Assembly (NCBI RefSeq): GCF_011745625.1 | Contig: NW_027191492.1 | Location: forward strand, 1 to 64,000 | Length of the DNA stretch: 64,000 nt | Reading direction: 5' to 3' | DNA from: Cladosporium halotolerans | Taxonomy: Eukaryota | Part shown: positions 2,260-43,980 of the stretch, piece by piece | Numbering within the stretch: the first letter of the stretch is position 1 | How the letters are laid out: every line of letters begins with the position of its first letter | Made by a program: the position numbers and the translations under genes | The notes under the pieces: model-generated | Databases searched by the model: none | Seen by the model: the letters and a program-made list of their open reading frames with translations, nothing else | What the model was told of the DNA's origin: nothing

Positions 2260-3376
2260 ATGTCTCTGGACGGCCCTCACATCGACGACCTCGCCGAGCG
2301 TGAACTGTCAGCATGTCCATCGCCGGCCGAGAGCCCATCCCGGAGTTCCAGCACTTCGCGCATGCTGCCTCCCAGACCAAAGCCTGGCGCACTGTCTCTC
2401 TTGTTCTCACAGGATGTAGCCAGTGATTGGTGGCTGGAGTCACAGCTCCTCTTCGTATGTCGTCTTGTTGTTGTTTCATCATGGACGAGGAGTGTACTGA
2501 CCACCTGTCGTAGATGACGGCCATCACTGGTATCCTGGATGCCATTACTTTTACCGAATACCATGTCTTCACGACTAAGCAGACAGGTATGTACTAAAGG
2601 GGAACATCATTGTAATAATACATCAGCTGACATCGAGAGTAGGCAACTTCCTCAACATTGCCCTGTACGTGTTCTCAAAGGAGCGGCTGGCGCCTAAAAT
2701 CGAGCAGACCATCGCTGTTTCGATCAGCTCGTAAGTGGTATCATCGACTGAATCGTCGACTCTGACGCTGACTCTTATTCACAGCTTCCTCATAGGAAGT
2801 TTCATATTCGGCCAGCTCGCTCACAAAGTCCGGACCCGCAAGCGAGGATGGCTGATCATGACCACTTTGTTCCAAGCAACACTCGTCTTGGTCGTAGCAC
2901 TGATAGCCCGCTCCGGCGTCCGTGGCGATGGCACCGGGCCCCGTGCTCTTGCTATTGTCGGCTTGCTGTCCTTCGCTCAAGCCGGCCAAGTGAGCCTCGC
3001 AATCGGCGTCGGCATGGCGGAGTTGAACACCACCATGATCACTGGTGCGATCGTACGTGATATCTATATCAATCCTCCCAACGAGTCATTCTTCTAACCA
3101 GTCATCCAGATCTCTACCCTCGGCGACCCCAACATCTTCCGGCGCTCGAACCACGCCCGCGACCGCCGCATTCTGTTCGTTGTCTTTTACCTCGCTGGCT
3201 GCTTCGGTGGTACGGCCATGGACGTCAATACAAGCTGGACCTTCTTCCTCGCTTTCGGTATGAAGATGGCTGTTTGTGCGAGCTTCCTATTCACGCCGGG
3301 CATGGTGGCGGATCTGGAGAAGCAGGATGATAAGGGGACCGCGACTCCGGTCTCTCATATACTTTGGGGCGACTGA
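2260..3376 (+). CDS. DUF1275/YoaK-family membrane protein (about 4 introns)
   Basis: Spliced reading gives 'MTAITGILDAITFTEYHVFTTKQTG-N', 'FLIGSFIFGQL', 'LLSFAQAGQVSLA...ELNTTMITGA' and 'LGDPNIFRRSNHARDRRILFV', ending HILWGD* at 3374-3376. Confidence 0.8.
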
Positions 3377-4621
3377 GGCGCTCTCGATATATTCGGAGGT
3401 CAAGGCAAAGAGGGGAAGACGCATTGGATAAGATCCTCTTGAGCATGCTTCTGGTGGCGGCACCGGAACATCGAGGCGGAGCTGCGACGGGCGCCATTTT
3501 CCAACAAATTACGCTCAGTTGCCAGAGTGAACGGGGCAGACAAGCCATGAGCAGGTCGTCGGGGACCAAGTAAAAAGACAGAACCCGCATGGGAACTTAA
3601 CAACAGCTACAGGGGCGTTCGAGCGACTGTTTACCTTGCGATGGGATTACAGCACCATCGAATAGAGATACTCAGATAGATACACGAGGACTTGCGACAG
3701 CATAGCAGGCCTCATAGATTGATCATTAAAAAACCACAGGACATTCAGAAGTCTTCTGCAAGTTGAACGAATTAGTTCAAATCGATGATCATGTTGTGGA
3801 TACAAGTGACAAGTCCAGTCTCGGAGTCTCTGATCTTTCCACATTTCTTTTCGCCTTCCGTTTCGTACACTACGCCGATTTCGCCATCCTGAAGAGGGCA
3901 AACACTGGCATAAGCAATGCCCCACCTGCTCAATCGATCTTTGCGACAGTTGATGACGCTGATATCGTTGCGTATGCCGTATCCATTGCGGCAGCCAGCA
4001 CCGGAGTATTGTTCAATGTCGATTCTGCGCGGATTGGCAAGGGTAACGTCGCTCATCTAAATACTTGAGTTCCATGAGGTTTACTACTAGTCTTTTGATT
4101 TTACTAGGTTTCTACATTCCCCAAAGAAAGAAAGTCTTCACATGGTACTACCTTTCATTATCGGCGGCTATCGAGATGGAGTTCTTCCCCGGAGAGTATA
4201 TTCACTCTGGAAGAATCGCGTCGTAATCTTCATGAGCCTAGAAATCTTCGGATGCCCGATGGTAGCTAAGATCCCCATGACCGCATACTTGAGGAAGAGT
4301 TCAAGCATAACTCCGAACAGGCTTGGGTTTATCGTGTGCGTTGTGGGCGATGCATTCGACGAGTACGTGGAGCAAGGGAGGCGAATTCGTACAACACACG
4401 CGGCGAGAAGTGATGCAGGCTCAAGAGTTTGTTTGAACCTACCATTTGGTCCCTTCCGTGTGAGCGTGGGACTTCCAAGTCACATCTCGTGAGTCACGGA
4501 CCCGGTCATGAGACTGACCTGGACTATTGTGGAGAATGTTGAAGCTGCGCATCAACAGCGCTACATCAACAACTCTTCTTTGTTGACATCTAATGCCTAA
4601 CCACGGAAAGCCCCAACCAAA

Positions 4622-5347
4622 ATGTCTCAGCCGGAGTCTCCTTCAACTGAGCTGCGGTTCTCTGAAAGACCGTCGAGAGCAGACACAAATAACAACTGCA
4701 CTGCAACACTGGCGTGGCTGAAGATCAACATAGCCGCTATTTATTCAGCTGGCAGAACAACAGCGTCCGAGGATAGAGCCCCTACGCTCACTCGTGAAGC
4801 CTATCTAAACCTGTACTCTACAGTACACGACTACTGCATGGCCACAAGGGATAGCCGTAAATCGCACCCTCAGCCTCAACTCAGCGGCGGGGATTTGTAC
4901 AACGGGCTCGAGGACGCGATCAAGGCTCATTGTTCGGAGACTCGAGTCTACCTGTTGGCTCCAGCGAGCGGCGCAGACATTGATGGCGCCCGTCATGTGA
5001 TCGCGGAATACCTGACTCATTGGCGAAAGCTCACTCATTTGGCCGGATTGGTCACGAATCTACTGCGGCCATTAGAGGCGGATTGGATTCAGAGAGGGAT
5101 TAGTGCGAAGGCTGCGGATATGTACCGCATCAAGGACCTTCACACGGTTATATGGAAGCAAGAGATCCTCCAGGTTGGTGTCGACTCAACTGAAGCTGCC
5201 ACTGGGTCGAAGATTGAGAATGCTGCAAAGCTACTACAACATCACGGTGAAATAGGAAGCGAGAGCGACAAGGCACTAGCAGAGAGATTTGTGGAATCTA
5301 TCAAAAATATCGGCGTGGGACTCGGGAAGGGAGATGAAGCACGCTGA
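4622..5347 (+). CDS. Stand-alone cullin N-terminal repeat protein (Cul1/Cdc53-like, 241 aa, intronless)
   Basis: 'YLNLYSTVHDYC', 'GGDLYNGLEDAI', 'YLTHWRKLTHLAGLVTNLLRPLEADWIQR' and 'YRIKDLHTVIWKQEIL' match the helices of Cul1 repeat 1. No cullin-homology or Nedd8 region follows. Confidence 0.75.
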   Translation: MSQPESPSTELRFSERPSRADTNNNCTATLAWLKINIAAIYSAGRTTASEDRAPTLTREAYLNLYSTVHDYCMATRDSRKSHPQPQLSGGDLYNGLEDAIKAHCSETRVYLLAPASGADIDGARHVIAEYLTHWRKLTHLAGLVTNLLRPLEADWIQRGISAKAADMYRIKDLHTVIWKQEILQVGVDSTEAATGSKIENAAKLLQHHGEIGSESDKALAERFVESIKNIGVGLGKGDEAR

Positions 5348-6053
5348 CTCTCAGAGGTGGACATGGTGCCAGAAGCTCGCCATTGCGAAGCCAGTGCGAC
5401 ATGGAGGGCAGCATAATGAGCAGGCGTTGCCGCATGCTGCAACCGGACTGCTTCTGTTCAGCTGTTTGACGCATCCAGCTCTGCAGACTAGTAGGTACCA
5501 TCCTAATAATATATGGCTCGTTATATTGAACTGAGCATGACAATCGATCCACTTCAAACCTCTTGGGACGGGGCCTGTAGAGATCTAGCATCTCTGCTGG
5601 TTTATCAGTTCCTTGTTGCGCATGCTACTGAGAAGCGCGTGACTACTACGCATCGATACGAGAGTGACATGGATTGGCGACTGAAGTCACAGGCATCAGC
5701 TGGAGCGCGAGCGATCCTCCCGTTCCGGACCCAGTCGCGAGACGGGTCTTTACGGAAGATCGGTATAAGTCGATGCATTAGTGTTGCGAAGTATGACTGA
5801 GTGTAGTTTCACGACAGGACCAATAGCTCTCTACACATAGGAATTGTCGACTAGCGATTGCGAGCGGAAGGTCAATGAGAAGTCACGATTCATGCGAGGA
5901 GATGCTTTCTGACGCAGCACGGCAGAACTTCAATTGGTATCGAAACTACTAGCCCTCCAAAATGAATGATTAATCAGCGAACGAGCGAGGATTCTCAGAC
6001 CCCACCACACCCTTCAGTCTCCATACCGTAGCACGACCAAAGACAGATGCCGA

Positions 6054-7790
6054 TCAGACATCATCCGAAGCAAGCACAGTGCCGTCGTGCGCGAGAGCAA
6101 CCTTGTGGTGGACGAGCGAAGCCTTGACCGGGTTGGGAGCCTCAAAGATCTGGTCGAGCTCCTCGAGCGTGCGGTTCTTGGTCTCGGGCATCATGAAGTA
6201 GAAGATGGTGGCCTGGACGGCGTTCCAGACGATGAAGACGATGTACGTCTTCCAACCGATCTTCTGCAGCGAGATGGGCCAGGCGAACTGGTTCAGCAGG
6301 CCGCCGGCGTTGACGGCGAGGGCGGAGAAGGCCATGCCCTTGGCGCGCATCTCGAAGGAGAGCACTTCCACGGGGTAGAGGGCTTGCAGGGGCGTGAGAC
6401 CGACGGAGTAGACGGCGCCGAAGATGAAGATCATGGCGATGGAGGCGCGCGCGGCGCTATCGTTGGTCTCGCCTGATTGGTTGAAGAGGGCGGTCGCGAT
6501 GGTCATGCCAATCCAGACGATGCAGGTTCCGGTCATGGAGAAAAGCATGAGCGGGCGACGGCCGATGCGGTCGACGAAAGCGGCACCGGTCAGGGCGAAA
6601 ACGAACTGGAAGCAGGCGTAGCCGAGGTTGATGTTGGCTTGCGTGACGCTCTCAGTGTAGCCAGCGGTGTCGAGCACGGCGGGCAAGAAGTAAGACAGCA
6701 CACCGTTGCCGGCCCATTGAGCGAAGATGGAGAAAAGAACGTTGGTCGCGATGCGGTAGCGGCTGGCGCGAGTGTTGAACAACGCGCGGTAGTCCCACCA
6801 GCGCTTGTCAGAGCCCTCCCTGCGGAATATTGTTAGTCTGGACTCGCAGTATTGAAGACGAAGCGTCAACTTACAGGTTGAGGTATGACTCGTACTCCTC
6901 GAGCTGAAGCTTGACCCAAGCCGAGTCAGGGTTTCCGTAGCCATGGAATTTGGTCAAGACGGCAGTTGCCTTCTCGCGCTTGTTGTGAACATAGAGCCAG
7001 CGAGGGGACTCGGGGATGAACCAGCCGAAGAGAATGATCAAGCCAGGGAAAAACATCTGAAGGTAGACCGGGATGGTCCAGCTGATGTTTCCCTGGAGAG
7101 TGATCGCACCGCGGATGGCGCCAGAAGCCAAGATGGAACCAGTGAACCAGAAAGTGTTGCAGTAGGCAGTGAGGATACCACGGTAGGCTGGGTGAGAGGT
7201 CTCAACGACGTAGATGGGACCTGCGGCGGAGATGATGGAGACACCGAAACCAAGCAGGAAACGACCACCCTTGAGCTGACCGACGTGGCCGTTGAGGGCG
7301 GTGGTACCGTTGATGATAGCGCCAATGACGATGAGCCATGCACCGATTTGCATGCCAATCTTCCTGCCCCAAGTATCGATAGCCGGACCAACGAAGAACA
7401 GAGCAGTGACACCGCCGATCTGGTACATGGCAGAGTTGATAGCAGCCCACGGACCGTCCTTGGTGCCGCCGAAGAAGTCAAGGAATTGCTGGTTGGCCGT
7501 CAGACCACCGAAGACGGAGCCGTCGAAGCCGTTCATGGTCTGAGCAAAGCATCCGAGAAGGATACAGCCGATGAGCTTCCACGTAGTGGCGTTCCAGAGC
7601 GGAGGAGCCTCCTTGATGAGGGCTTCGTTGTAAGCTTCGGAGCCCTTGACAACCTTGACCTCTGCAACATCGGCCTGTCAGATCTGTTAGTCGAGCCGAA
7701 ATATTCTTCAGCTGGTGAGATTGAACGTACGGAGTCCACGATCTTCTCGACCGTGGCGGTGCCTGTCTTGACCTCCTCCACAGGCGACAT
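6054..7790 (-). CDS. Sugar porter, lactose permease/cellodextrin transporter-like (2 introns)
   Basis: Motifs MNGFDGS, DTWGRK, GGRFLLGFG, PESPRWL, QWAGNG, VDRIGRR, YPVEVLSFEMRAKGMA and PETKNRTLEELD. Introns about 7675-7730 and 6822-6873. Confidence 0.93.
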
Positions 7791-32850: not shown

Positions 32851-34599
32851 ATTCTTTTGCTCGGTGGGTTGAAGATGCAAGGCGGAAGTGCAAGCTGCGC
32901 GATCATGGCGGACCCTTGGCGCGACGTCGGTGGAGAGCGGACATCAACTGGCGAGCGTGCTACCTCACTTTTCTTATCTCCTCCTCCCGACCTACCCTCG
33001 GGTTCCAATTTCGGCGCAATGGCCTTCATTCATGGATGTTATTCTGGTCACCCTGGAAAAGGCTGAATTCAACTCATGCAAGGTGCTGGCCACCTTCGGT
33101 TTCTGGACATGATCATACTTTCATTTTCCGGAATACGGATCTACCTCTTATACTCAAACTTAGGATGCTAGCATAGAAATTACCGTTCCACTCATCCCAT
33201 CAATCCCTCGACAAAGCTCAGAACCCCTCCTTCCTCGCCTCCGGCACAGCATCCACAGCTATTCCCCAGCGCGGAGGCGACTTGCTCCTGTCATCGCCGC
33301 GTTTCCTTTGCCCGCCACTGTTCCTCCTCTTCGGCGTTGAACCTCTGGACCAAGGACTGTCCATGAAAATTTTCGATTGCTGTCTTCTCCTCGAGATACT
33401 TCCGGACCTGGAACATAGGTGTTGAGGTTATAAAATCCTAGGTGACTACCGTCACATGAGTATGAGTCAGGTGACTAAGACGGTCGAATTCGGTCTCGGT
33501 GAAGAGGAGTGAAGAAGCGATGAAGTGATGAAGCAATAGTTCGGTGCTGTCATTTCCAAGCAGTCACTGTGAACAATGAGTTGAACACATAAGGACAGGA
33601 GTCTCCTTGGGTTCGAAGTCGGGTTTCTAAGTTACAGTGACACTCTTCATCCCGCCTGCACCGGAACGCCATAGATCATGCGCTTGTTGCCCTTTCTTAG
33701 ACCTGTCGTCCTAAGTGACTGCAATCACGTGACTGATGCTCATGTGACTGAGCAATTTCCTTGAGTGTGGAGGACTTCAGAGGGGGGTTGAGAGGAGTTG
33801 CATGTCTGTCTGGTGTACTCGATGCGACATCAGCGAGATCACTATCACCAATGCGCTTGACGCAGATCTCATGATACGTTCCCTCTCGCCAAACTACCAT
33901 ATGGAACACAACGCACTCGGGGCGCCATATGCACTGAAGCAAGGGATCACAGGCGTAACATCTAGCCATGTACGACACACGCACTGACGTGGGGTGCATA
34001 AGGCACAACGCTGTGATCCATCAGATCAGGCTCGTGACGATCTGTTAACAAATCAACACAACATCTATAATCTAGGAATCTCTCAGTGATCCAAGGCTCA
34101 ATCGAATCATCTTCATTTGCAATCTGAGCACCTGGAAATTTACAGTCAGCAACCATTCTCAGCACTTTCGAGCATTTGAAACAAAGAACCAGCCAATTTT
34201 TACTGTATATCACGATGTTGCGGCCTTGTGCTTCTACAGGCGCCAGCGAGCACCTCGGGCACTGCAAAATCACAGTGGCATCTTTATGCTCCAATGTTGA
34301 TGAGGCTGATTCTGCACTGACCGAACCGACTCAAGTCGATCGTTCTCATGAACCCAGAGTCTTCTCGCGACAAGTCTTCCAGCGGTGGCCGCGCGTCGTT
34401 TAGGTGGTCGCTCGCGACGAACTCGATGCGCCTTCTTGCCTGAGATCTCGTAGCTCTGTCGACTGCTATACAGCGATAGGTTCGTAGCCGGCACCACGTA
34501 TAGGTGGATCTCGTCGCCGACCCACAAGCGCGCTCAAGGATTTTATTCCGCCCGGCGCTAAGCACTTGAAGGGTAACAGACTATTTACGCTACATACAT

Positions 34600-36330
34600 T
34601 AGGTTTTTCCAGTCAAAAAGCCTAATAGAACCGAAAATCAATCCTCTCTAGCACTCTTTCTTATATAATATAATATATATCCTTTATTCAAATTCTTATA
34701 GTAAGTAGATAGTAGGAACTCTTAAAGCTATATATCTAAGTATTAATCGCCCTATATCTAGCGGATAAAGTAGGACCTACTATATATATTAGAGTATATA
34801 AGGTTAGTATAGTATCTAATAATTAGGAAAAAGCTAGCTAAAAGTATTAGTATTACTAGCTACGTATTATTATTTACTATCGCTTATTAGTATTATACTT
34901 GAATCTCTTAGTTAAGTAAGACGAAATAGATAATAGCTCGTACTATATCCATATCTAGCTTCTAGTCTTTAGTATCTATAATTAATTTATCTCTAAGTAG
35001 GTATATAAGACTATTTAAAAGATTATTTATACTCGTTTATATTCTAAAGATCTAGCGTTAATAACTATACTTCGTTTAATAGAATATAAAATACTCTTTT
35101 AACTCAATTACCTTACTATAGAAGCGCCCTTTTTCTAATCTCTTAGAAGACGTAATAATATTTTATATAGACTTTAATACTTCTTAGAATATATAAATCT
35201 ATATATAGATATAGTATAATATAAAACCTCCTACTATAGATTAGCGTTTATAGCTAGTAAGCGAATACTAGTATATACTTATTAGGAAGAGACTTTAGTA
35301 TAAGACTTTTATTAAATTTATTAGAAAAAAAAGCTATTTATTATAGAAATACTATATCTTCTAGGTATATTTCTAAATAGCTACTATTATACGCCTACTA
35401 TTATTATCCTTATTCTAATTATCTTTCGAATTAGTCTTCTTTTAGTATACCTAGCGTTCTTTAATCTTAGACTCCTAAGTAAGTAAATAGATATAGAGAT
35501 TCTAAAGTTCTTTTTTTTTCTACTTTTTATCTTATAGACCTAGACGATTAGAATCGTTTTAAATTATTTAATAAATAAATTATAGAAAGAAAATAAATTA
35601 TAAAAAATATATAAAATTAGCTTTATAATACAATCTATCGATTCTTTAGGAATAAAATAGAACTCTAAACTACTATAAAAAACTAGATTAATATACTTTA
35701 TAATTAGACCTTAGGCTCTAGTAATATACTTTTACTAGTTTTTAAATCTATTACGATCTAGTTTATACTCCTAAATAATAATACTATATATGCCTATAGC
35801 GTATTTAAGCTCGTTAGGTAGTAAAATAAAAATTAAAGTAGTAGTAAGAGTTAATAGACTTAATTCTAGCTTTATTAAAGTAGCTCTAGTATTTTTTTTC
35901 CTTATCTTTAGCCTTAGATTATAGAATTTCCTATCCTAGTAGTTTCGGACGAATAGGGCGTTCTTTAATTCTTCCTTATTAGAAAATAGGTCCTAAAGAG
36001 TATTAATAATAGCGTCGATCTTAAAACGGCGATACTATCTAATATAGTTATTAGGTCCTATAAAGATCTTATTAGATAAGTCCTTAGACTAGGGTTTATC
36101 GTTTATCGATATAGTAGTATAAGCTTCTAGCTTATTTAGGAGTGCTAGAAGGACTCCTAGTAGGAGAGTATAAGACTAATTTAGTTAGGCGAGCCCTAAG
36201 ACTATAAATTAGTTGAAAATAGGTAGATCCTCTACTTCTTAGAGTGAAGTTTAGATTGAGAAGGTATCTACGCTATAGAAAAGGTGATATACAGGCTTCA
36301 AATAAAGAAATACGGGAGCTCCCGCAGGTA
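34600..36330. mobile_element. About 1.7-kb heavily RIP-mutated repeat/transposon relic (class unresolved)
   Basis: Very AT-rich block with sharp boundaries, extreme TpA and TAG excess and near-absence of CpA/TpG. No ORF of 60 aa or more in the track; no TIR or LTR recognised. Confidence 0.8.
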
Positions 36331-42799: not shown

Positions 42800-43980
42800 T
42801 CATTCGAGATCCGATTTGGCTTCCGAAATTTTCCTGTGCTTCAACCAGTACCGAATGAAAGCCATCTCATCGACGCTGATGTTTTTTTCAATCCGATCCT
42901 CAGTTATGTCTTTGATGACCGCTGCTTGCTGAGCCTGATACTCCGCAAGGGTTGGAATGGGAATGCCCATGTTAAGCGCTAATACTTTGTCAGTCAACTG
43001 CACGTTTTTATCTCGATGAAGTTTGATAATCACTTGCCTTGGGCCTTCGCACTGACATAAGCACCCAGTTTCTCGCTTTTTGCCTGCATCAACAATTGCT
43101 GCTTTTTCTGATTCCGGTAAGCGTTTTGGACAGCCGCAAGGATAGGATCGTCATCTTCGAGGTCAAGTTGGAGTTCGCCGGTAAAGTTGACATCGGGATT
43201 AATAGACCCGTCTTCGAGATCGTGGCAGTCTAGGCCTGGAATGCCGTTGACGATGCAAGCCTTGTGTTCAGATTTAATTCGGTGGTACGCATCTTTGAGC
43301 TGGCGCAGCGTAACCCCTGTTTGTGACCTGAGAATCACAGTAGGACCACAGAACAGGTCGTTGACGCAACATTGCGCCCAAGCAAATATCTCAGAAACGG
43401 GCGGCTGGCAGATTAGCATGTCAAGAGCGCGCTCACCAAGCGACATTTTGTCGAAGAATCGTTTTCCACTGATGTCGAACTCTAGAGACCATCCGGTGAC
43501 CACAAGTGGCCCATTCGCGAATCCATGCGGCGTTTGCGGAATGATTGACAGTGCAAATGGCTGACGGGGCAGCGAACGCTCTTGCAAGGCGGCGACGGTC
43601 GCGAATGGGGTTGCGAAATAGCCATCCCGATCCGGCTCGATCATCATCTTCCGGCGCAAGATAATCGATTTCTCCATAGTGCTTTTTGTGGCTCTATTGA
43701 GCCGCTTGAGGACGAGCAAATCCTTCCAATCGCAGAAGTAGAGGATGCGTTCGAGTAGCTCCGGAATCGCAAACACCTTAGGAGCCTTGCTGATGCCATC
43801 CCCAGCCGTTGGCTTGATGGCGTCTTCGATGATGCTCAGCAGCTTCAATGCTGCTGGCAAGCTTTTTTCGCTCAGTTCGCTGGCCAAAAGGCCGCGAAGA
43901 GAGCGCACACTCTTCCCGCGTCCTCAGCGTTGCCCGAGCCCAAGAATTGGAGAATTGCTTACCTTTTGTGACGACTGCAT
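42800..43980 (-). CDS. F-box-like domain protein, 2 introns (second is GC-AG, 43037-42979)
   Basis: 'KVFAIPELLERILYFCDWKDLLVLKRLNRATKSTMEKSIILRRKM' F-box-like segment and 'MLICQPPV'. ATG at 43980 with a GTAAGC donor. Confidence 0.75.

Follow-up and report, generated by a model that had tools for sequence, protein, structure and literature searches.

A conserved family of short Cul1-derived proteins in Dothideomycetidae fungi as candidate natural dominant-negative cullins

Here, we present an analysis of a short gene at 4622-5347 (+) in a 64,000-nucleotide stretch of the Cladosporium halotolerans genome (contig NW_027191492.1, positions 1 to 64,000; C327 of our genome set G000; hereafter, the window). 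The gene encodes P0001, a protein that corresponds to little more than the first repeat of the cullin Cul1. Based on sequence comparisons, P0001 belongs to an old, conserved, multi-copy family of short Cul1-derived proteins, which are Dothideomycetidae proteins and occur in several fungal orders; the gene family is real and conserved and has apparently not been described so far. P0001 is predicted to bind Skp1, and we give a roughly even chance (about 0.5) to the reading that it is a natural dominant-negative Cul1, which would keep Skp1-F-box modules from active SCF (Skp1-Cul1-F-box) complexes. The original prediction for this gene had proposed such a decoy, but it missed the large, old, multi-copy family to which the gene belongs.

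A short Cul1-like gene and its predicted fold

The gene is a single uninterrupted frame from ATG to TGA in one exon and encodes 241 amino acids (aa). PF00888 (Cullin) is the sole Pfam family above its cut-off (37.8 bits vs. 33.2; E 1.3e-9), and the match pairs P0001 residues 56-192 with positions 16-123 of the 620 in the model. The AlphaFold2 model of P0001, built from 16 sequences, is all-helical, with a mean pLDDT (predicted local distance difference test) of 83.9 and a pTM (predicted template-modeling score) of 0.84. Using this model, the top Foldseek match was a CUL1 chain (E 5.5e-4), with just 1 of 500 matches at or below 0.001, and a second structure aligner placed the model on human CUL1 residues 16-234 (Z 16.4; root mean square deviation 2.6 Å; 180 residues), ahead of the Cul2, Cul3, Cul4, and Cul5 chains (Z 12.9-14.5). 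By model and profile, P0001 folds as a cullin N-terminal helical bundle.

P0001 comprises Cul1 repeat 1 and the first two helices of repeat 2. It is slightly longer than repeat 1 because the profile reaches human CUL1 residues 34-214 and the model 16-234. P0001 lacks both the three complete cullin repeats and the Rbx1-binding cullin-homology region, the match stopping at Pfam position 123 of 620 and human residue 214-234, and PF10557 (Cullin_Nedd8) was absent from P0001 in the Pfam search. When the window was searched by tblastn with 690 aa of the genome's own Cul1, the P0001 open reading frame (ORF) was the only real match (Cul1 exon-2 residues 23-186; E 3e-12), and the five other matches all had E ≥0.89. 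The region 5151-6060 contains no strong splice-donor pattern. Accordingly, the original prediction was right that an intact ORF with a Cul1-type N-terminus and a cullin fold stops cleanly, with neither a downstream cullin remnant nor a strong signal for splicing to more cullin exons; to the repeat-1 motifs that it named, the two helices of repeat 2 are to be added. The features of the gene are as follows:

4622..5347 (+): single-exon ORF for the stand-alone Cul1 N-terminal protein P0001 (ORF, Pfam, and model)
4652..4717 (+): N-terminal arm running into helix 1 (residues 11-32); P17, T29, L30, and W32 are kept in 50, 49, 49, and 48 of 57 family rows
4793..4828 (+): helix 2 with the Skp1-facing residues R58, Y61, L62, Y65, S66, and H69 (interface of the predicted complex)
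5048..5080 (+): patch of helices 4-5 (residues 143-153) that makes up the second part of the predicted Skp1 face, with contacts at 143, 146, 149, 150, and 153 in the predicted complex
5297..5347 (+): last conserved helix S226-V232 (SFVSLGI in Cul1), short tail, and TGA (family-wide end point)

Reading from the frames, the gene is flanked by a membrane-protein gene that ends at ~3377 and by a sugar-transporter gene in convergent orientation (from 6054). About 160 bases past the stop, at 5505-5511 (+), lies an AT-rich motif that could be a polyadenylation signal. Four sequencing runs, all as contigs, were compared with the window. A contig from run X9 spans the stop (4918-5530) without any difference or joint; X9 covers 4681-5530 and the ends of both neighboring genes, but not 3734-4680 or 5531-5942. 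Run X1, which we only guess to be RNA, covers 4651-5132 with no difference. This pattern would fit transcripts; because the kinds of these runs are not on record and gaps in coverage carry no weight, we do not count it as evidence for expression. The Fulvia family member described below did not occur in supplementary files 1-12 and 33 (of 39) of PMC11694984. Elsewhere in the window, 34001-36000 has a GC content of 0.32 compared with 0.49-0.61 in the rest and is perhaps a repeat mutated by RIP (repeat-induced point mutation).

A family of short proteins derived from Cul1

A first homologue search among 1208 candidates of 132-422 aa gave 18 proteins including P0001, all of 162-241 aa, and a search with a 57-row family alignment, in which 8000 candidates were scored, gave 17 proteins, one of them new to that search. 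The forms of 162-166 aa were considered as a real short class and rejected; by eye, one of them, P0015, is the distal part of the full ORF at metagenome locus L009. In a profile search of 1.84 billion representatives without length limit, 330 matches had E ≤0.001; among the best 150 of these, ranks 1-68 were all ≤356 aa, at least three of them resembling fragments of ordinary Cul1, and the first long protein (511 aa; E 1.2e-14) was at rank 69. In the ESM Atlas, P0001 adjoins a 68-member cluster of ~255 aa (score 0.97; template-modeling score 0.77); the automatic label of family members in this cluster and in UniRef is "Cullin N-terminal domain-containing protein".

In a quick tree of 110 sequences, from which those <190 aa and six composite or gapped ones were left out, P0001 falls in a clade of 54 sequences of 191-356 aa, 47 of them from the profile search, supported at 99 by SH-aLRT (Shimodaira-Hasegawa-like approximate likelihood ratio test). 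This clade excludes the genome's own Cul1 as well as all 19 sequences of ≥430 aa. In a careful tree of 53 chosen sequences, all 26 sampled family members form one clade (support 100/99) that is nested among ascomycete Cul1 sequences (95/81); in this tree, the outgroup did not form one side of a branch. Seven less diverged short proteins are placed with the genome's own Cul1 by the quick tree but with the family by the careful one (98/93). Nine short Cul1-like proteins of 200-302 aa lie nearer to Cul1 than the main family does (P0211, P0215, P0216, P0228, P0229, P0238, P0266, P0273, and P0289), of which P0273 is labeled Fusarium coffeatum and falls outside the clade. Such proteins may be early branches or separate truncations, in which case Cul1 may have been shortened in this way repeatedly. 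Moreover, P0235 (461 aa) has the Cul1 N-terminal region at its start and a Skp1 C-terminal peptide at its end, and P0276 (1718 aa) has a cullin-like stretch at 1281-1407; these may be real fusions or gene-call artefacts.

Of 20 clusters that were looked up, 7 carried an organism name. Those within the clade are Cladosporium halotolerans, Aureobasidium pullulans, Aureobasidium melanogenum, Cercospora beticola, Fulvia fulva, and Septoria linicola, i.e., five genera from the Cladosporiales, Dothideales, and Mycosphaerellales. Gene models of 213-286 aa represent the family on contigs of 0.8-6.4 Mb in Aureobasidium, Cercospora, Fulvia, and Septoria. The family has a common end point: in 50 of the 57 alignment rows, the end lies no more than 20 residues from the G231 column (median, 10), four of these rows stopping before it; five rows have tails of 41-50 residues. 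In DNA, the stop codon was seen directly in all seven complete copies; one more copy is partial. Five family loci were confirmed among 101 stretches in a metagenome scan, and one of them, L012, holds two members in tandem (1855-2601 and 2931-3692) that are 330 bases apart and have a dN/dS of 0.45 between them. An 18.8-kb contig of run X2 follows the window over 3302-6200.

Several lines of evidence identify Cul1 as the parent of the family. P0001 has 25% identity to the genome's own Cul1 over 180 columns (BLASTP; E 4e-16). With the family profile, human CUL1 reaches E 7e-23 to 6e-21, far above CUL2 and CUL5 (2e-4 to 3e-3), CUL3 (0.07), and CUL4 (0.5). Of the full cullins of the genome, Cul1 (C100) obtains 126.5 bits with this profile, compared with 19.3 and ~2 bits for the two others. 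Because own and human Cul1 score far above other cullins, we conclude, from the sequences, that the parent is Cul1.

The genome has three full cullins (C100, C348, and C217), and the PF00888 search further matched APC2. Three Cullin_Nedd8 matches were found, each at a full cullin locus and none on the window contig. These counts are lower bounds; the genome search with PF00888 missed the P0001 gene itself. A second short cullin (255 aa; 36% identity to P0001) lies on C684 (L002:1483-2250), just downstream of what we take to be a homoaconitase-like gene; the C684 protein carries the organism label Cladosporium halotolerans and falls in the same clade as P0001 in the quick tree. A weak match at C68 (E 0.84; one internal stop) was judged not to be a cullin. 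The genome also contains four divergent Skp1-like genes (C655:12139, C26:962, C109:1420, and C50:9861; L024-L027) that lie on contigs of 6-31 kb, exceed the cut-off of PF01466, and have 27-32% identity to canonical Skp1. Three of the four are in segments with 91-97% DNA identity; an unknown gene is common to the loci, and other neighbors are presumably a chitinase-like frame and a transposase-like frame. The four genes are possibly cargo of a mobile or accessory region.

To assess constraint, we compared seven complete coding sequences (the window, C684, L009-L011, and both L012 copies, without the partial L013), giving 21 pairs of homologues whose orthology is unproven. In all 15 pairs that could be measured by the Nei-Gojobori method, dN/dS was 0.06-0.45, of which the lowest value is unreliable (dS of 6), and codon position 3 was the least conserved in 21 of 21 pairs. 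These data argue that the protein sequence is under purifying selection across the family.

The genome's Cul1 has, by our own reading, an intron just before the first helix (L005:1425-1540). It is the only Cul1 intron in the region common to the short genes, and all seven complete copies read through its position; in P0001, the segment 4652-4717 is continuous across this site, and by eye the Cul1 exon-1 peptide can be matched to the conserved N-terminal arm. The missing intron fits the proposed origin as a retrocopy; however, loss of an intron gives the same picture, and, therefore, the two are indistinguishable. By blastn, the window has no significant DNA match to Cul1 (best E 0.30), and the family is too old to keep marks of a retrocopy such as a poly(A) remnant or a target-site duplication. 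The data are compatible with an origin either from a retroposed partial Cul1 message or by intron loss after duplication.

Skp1 face and the dominant-negative reading

We take the Skp1 contacts of human CUL1 to be Y42, M43, Y46, T47, Y50, Y139, and R142; no paper listing the Cul1 contact residues for Skp1 was found in the literature. These residues align to P0001 positions 61, 62, 65, 66, 69, 150, and 153, which, allowing close substitutes, are kept in 55, 45, 51, 47, 45, 25, and 47 of 57 rows, respectively, and six or seven of the seven are kept in 36 rows. Counting strict tyrosine, Y61 is kept in 54 and Y65 in 50 of 57 rows; both are among the 14 most conserved columns of an alignment with a mean column identity of 24%. 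Thus, the helix-2 part of the Skp1 face is strongly kept across the aligned sequences, while the helix-5 part is partly changed, also in P0001. The C684 copy keeps six of the seven positions and has a better helix-5 motif than P0001.

A complex between P0001 (residues 9-236) and a Skp1 (P0041, residues 1-145) is predicted with scores of 0.78, 0.78, and 0.77 compared with 0.01, 0.57, and 0.01 for controls. The runs share at least 89% of contacts, and the partner pLDDT is at least 82. The predicted contacts (19, 53, 55-56, 58, 61-62, 65-66, 69, 143, 146, 149-150, and 153) include all seven contact positions. Among microbial pairs, 51 of 78 solved and 2 of 108 mismatched ones attained the pass mark used; among eukaryotic pairs, 71 of 105 solved ones did so (39 of 65 when those with a like older complex are set aside), as did 2 of 126 unrelated ones; a pass does not tell which member of the partner's family binds.

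We propose that the family arose when a copy of Cul1 lost everything past the second helix of cullin repeat 2 while retaining the Skp1-binding surface, which is conserved in sequence and for which binding is predicted. Because it lacks Rbx1-binding and Nedd8 domains, the short protein would be unable to carry a ubiquitin-conjugating enzyme (E2), and, by analogy with engineered dominant-negative Cul1, it should not hold CAND1. Most likely, it would then compete with full-length Cul1 for Skp1-F-box modules, and modules trapped in this way would neither ubiquitinate nor exchange; such inactive complexes would protect some substrates, along with the F-box proteins, from being ubiquitinated. More speculatively, the changed helix-5 patch might lower the affinity or limit binding to some modules. 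More tentatively than for P0001 itself, and at somewhat less than even odds, we suggest that natural dominant-negative Cul1 proteins form a dedicated, multi-copy family in a large group of ascomycetes. Serving as endogenous sinks for Skp1-F-box modules, they would add a layer of SCF control to those of CAND1 and the signalosome, and individual paralogues would be tuned to different subsets of F-box proteins. The proposed link to a lineage-type F-box gene at 42.8-44 kb of the window found no support: Pfam returned no family for the 297-aa frame at 43030-43923 (-) or for its motif region alone. The F-box-like motif of this frame, which to our eye resembles lineage-type F-boxes, has two weak matches elsewhere in the genome.

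Several observations weigh against P0001 acting as a dominant-negative Cul1. P0001 keeps only five of the seven contact positions, having P150 for Y and A153 for R, and in the family Y or F at 150 is kept in just 25 of 57 rows and R or K at 153 in 47; hence, the expected Skp1 interface stands for helix 2 and not fully for helix 5. The complex prediction passed narrowly, by a margin of 0.21 with 0.20 required and an unrelated control at 0.57; it was made without alignments and with a stand-in Skp1, P0041, which matches the last exon of the genome's Skp1 at 97% identity. Because Cul1-Skp1 is a solved textbook pair, the pass may reflect likeness and compatibility, and possibly memory of solved SCF structures. 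The family has residues unlike those of Cul1 (P17, W32, Y41, and C104) that are kept in 48-55 of 57 members and that point to constraints foreign to Cul1. Its branches in the careful tree are long, indicating fast evolution. Regarding selection, the six pairs involving C684 are saturated at synonymous sites and give no dN/dS, and dS in the others is near saturation. Two relatives look damaged, P0003 deviating at the N-terminus and P0011 at the C-terminus. The window neighbors were found at none of the five metagenome loci (contigs of 1-5 kb). Finally, the X2 contig has a 1-base deletion at 4774; however, only 8 of the 11 gap letters of this contig are listed and P0002, the nearest cluster, differs from P0001 at exactly residues 51-53, and, therefore, the deletion may be compensated.

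The residues foreign to Cul1 are what one would expect if the old face bound Skp1-F-box modules while a new surface, comprising the N-terminal arm, W32, Y41, and C104, brought the module to another partner or place, for which the cullin-free Skp1-F-box complexes of yeast are a model. A patch outside the predicted Skp1 contacts, R158 and E162, is also kept (51 and 43 of 57 rows), and a pure sink would need little past its Skp1 face. We regard this explanation as unlikely, although it is the most plausible of the alternatives; the family's own residues may merely stabilize a bundle deprived of its neighboring repeats, and the gene neighborhood indicates no partner. Less probable still is that the partner is a different BTB/POZ-fold protein, i.e., a divergent Skp1-like or BTB protein, in the manner of CACUL1, which co-precipitates with Keap1 (PMC4523873; statements on cited work, here and below, refer to the parts of each paper available to us). 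The divergence of helix 5, the four additional Skp1 family matches, and the inability of the complex prediction to tell Skp1 family members apart agree with such a switch, whereas helix 2 holds a Cul1-type pattern, the family profile barely scores CUL3, and three of the four Skp1-like copies are recent while the short cullins span several orders.

Scattered loci, the L012 tandem pair, long branches, a few seemingly damaged relatives, and the 10% protein difference between P0001 and P0002 could instead reflect gene birth and death, with truncated Cul1 duplicates of little function and the P0001 copy on its way out. We find this improbable, given frames open at the same length in all seven complete DNA copies despite synonymous sites near saturation, dN/dS below 0.5 in every measurable pair, and an end point and new motifs shared across five genera. 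Finally, that P0001 is the first exon of a longer gene, or half of a split cullin completed in trans, is very hard to credit: although many family rows are metagenome gene calls that ignore introns and a branch-point-like CTGAC overlaps the P0001 stop, the rest of the window has no cullin similarity, the genome's three Cullin_Nedd8 matches are all at full cullins and its remaining PF00888 match is APC2 (both counts being lower bounds), the gene models of four genera lie in contigs of 0.8-6.4 Mb, and the X9 contig, with its kind of run not on record, passes the stop unbroken. Altogether, the structural case for a stand-alone Cul1 N-terminus is strong, while the functional case for a dominant-negative Cul1 rests on conservation and one narrow prediction.

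Comparison with known cullin systems

A survey of the cullin family arrived at three cullin genes in fungi, species-specific duplicates aside; it was queried with residues 420-776 of human CUL1 and dropped sequences of <300 aa (PMC2785787), and, therefore, N-terminal-only proteins would have been invisible to it. In the literature, of which most subscription journals were outside our search, we found no description of a fungal family of N-terminal-only cullins. Should it prove not to bind Skp1, the family would still represent a reuse of the cullin fold that has apparently not been described. If Skp1 is bound in the cell, the family would offer natural variants of the Cul1-Skp1 interface for studying receptor exchange and F-box stability.

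P0001 shares with Cul1/Cdc53 the N-terminal helical bundle, the helix-2 Skp1 motif, and its place among ascomycete Cul1 sequences. It differs in having ~30% of the length, without the rest of repeats 2-3, the cullin-homology/Rbx1 region, and the Nedd8 domain, and its family differs in being intronless, fast-evolving, and multi-copy, with an altered helix-5 motif. Because it has no Rbx1 or Nedd8 region, P0001 is outside Cul1 proper.

Like P0001, human CACUL1/CAC1 is a stand-alone cullin-derived protein without domains for neddylation or for RING binding, and it is thought to suppress a cullin ligase (PMC13015453; PMC4523873). However, CACUL1 acts on Cul3-Keap1, whereas the P0001 family derives from fungal Cul1 with the Skp1-type face kept; its origin is probably independent of CACUL1, judging from its position in the tree within fungal Cul1, with a fungal Cul1 as the nearest full cullin. 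If it binds Skp1 in the cell, the family would be a fungal parallel to CACUL1.

A further comparison is with engineered Cul1 without its C-terminus, which competes for Skp1 and receptors, keeps full-length Cul1 from binding Skp1 and Skp2, and is unable to bind CAND1 (PMC3020946). That protein is an unaltered, over-expressed laboratory fragment, whereas P0001 is the product of a natural gene, is 25% identical to its parent, and is known from sequence alone. Were Skp1 bound in the cell, the family would be the natural, long-conserved counterpart of the laboratory dominant-negative Cul1.
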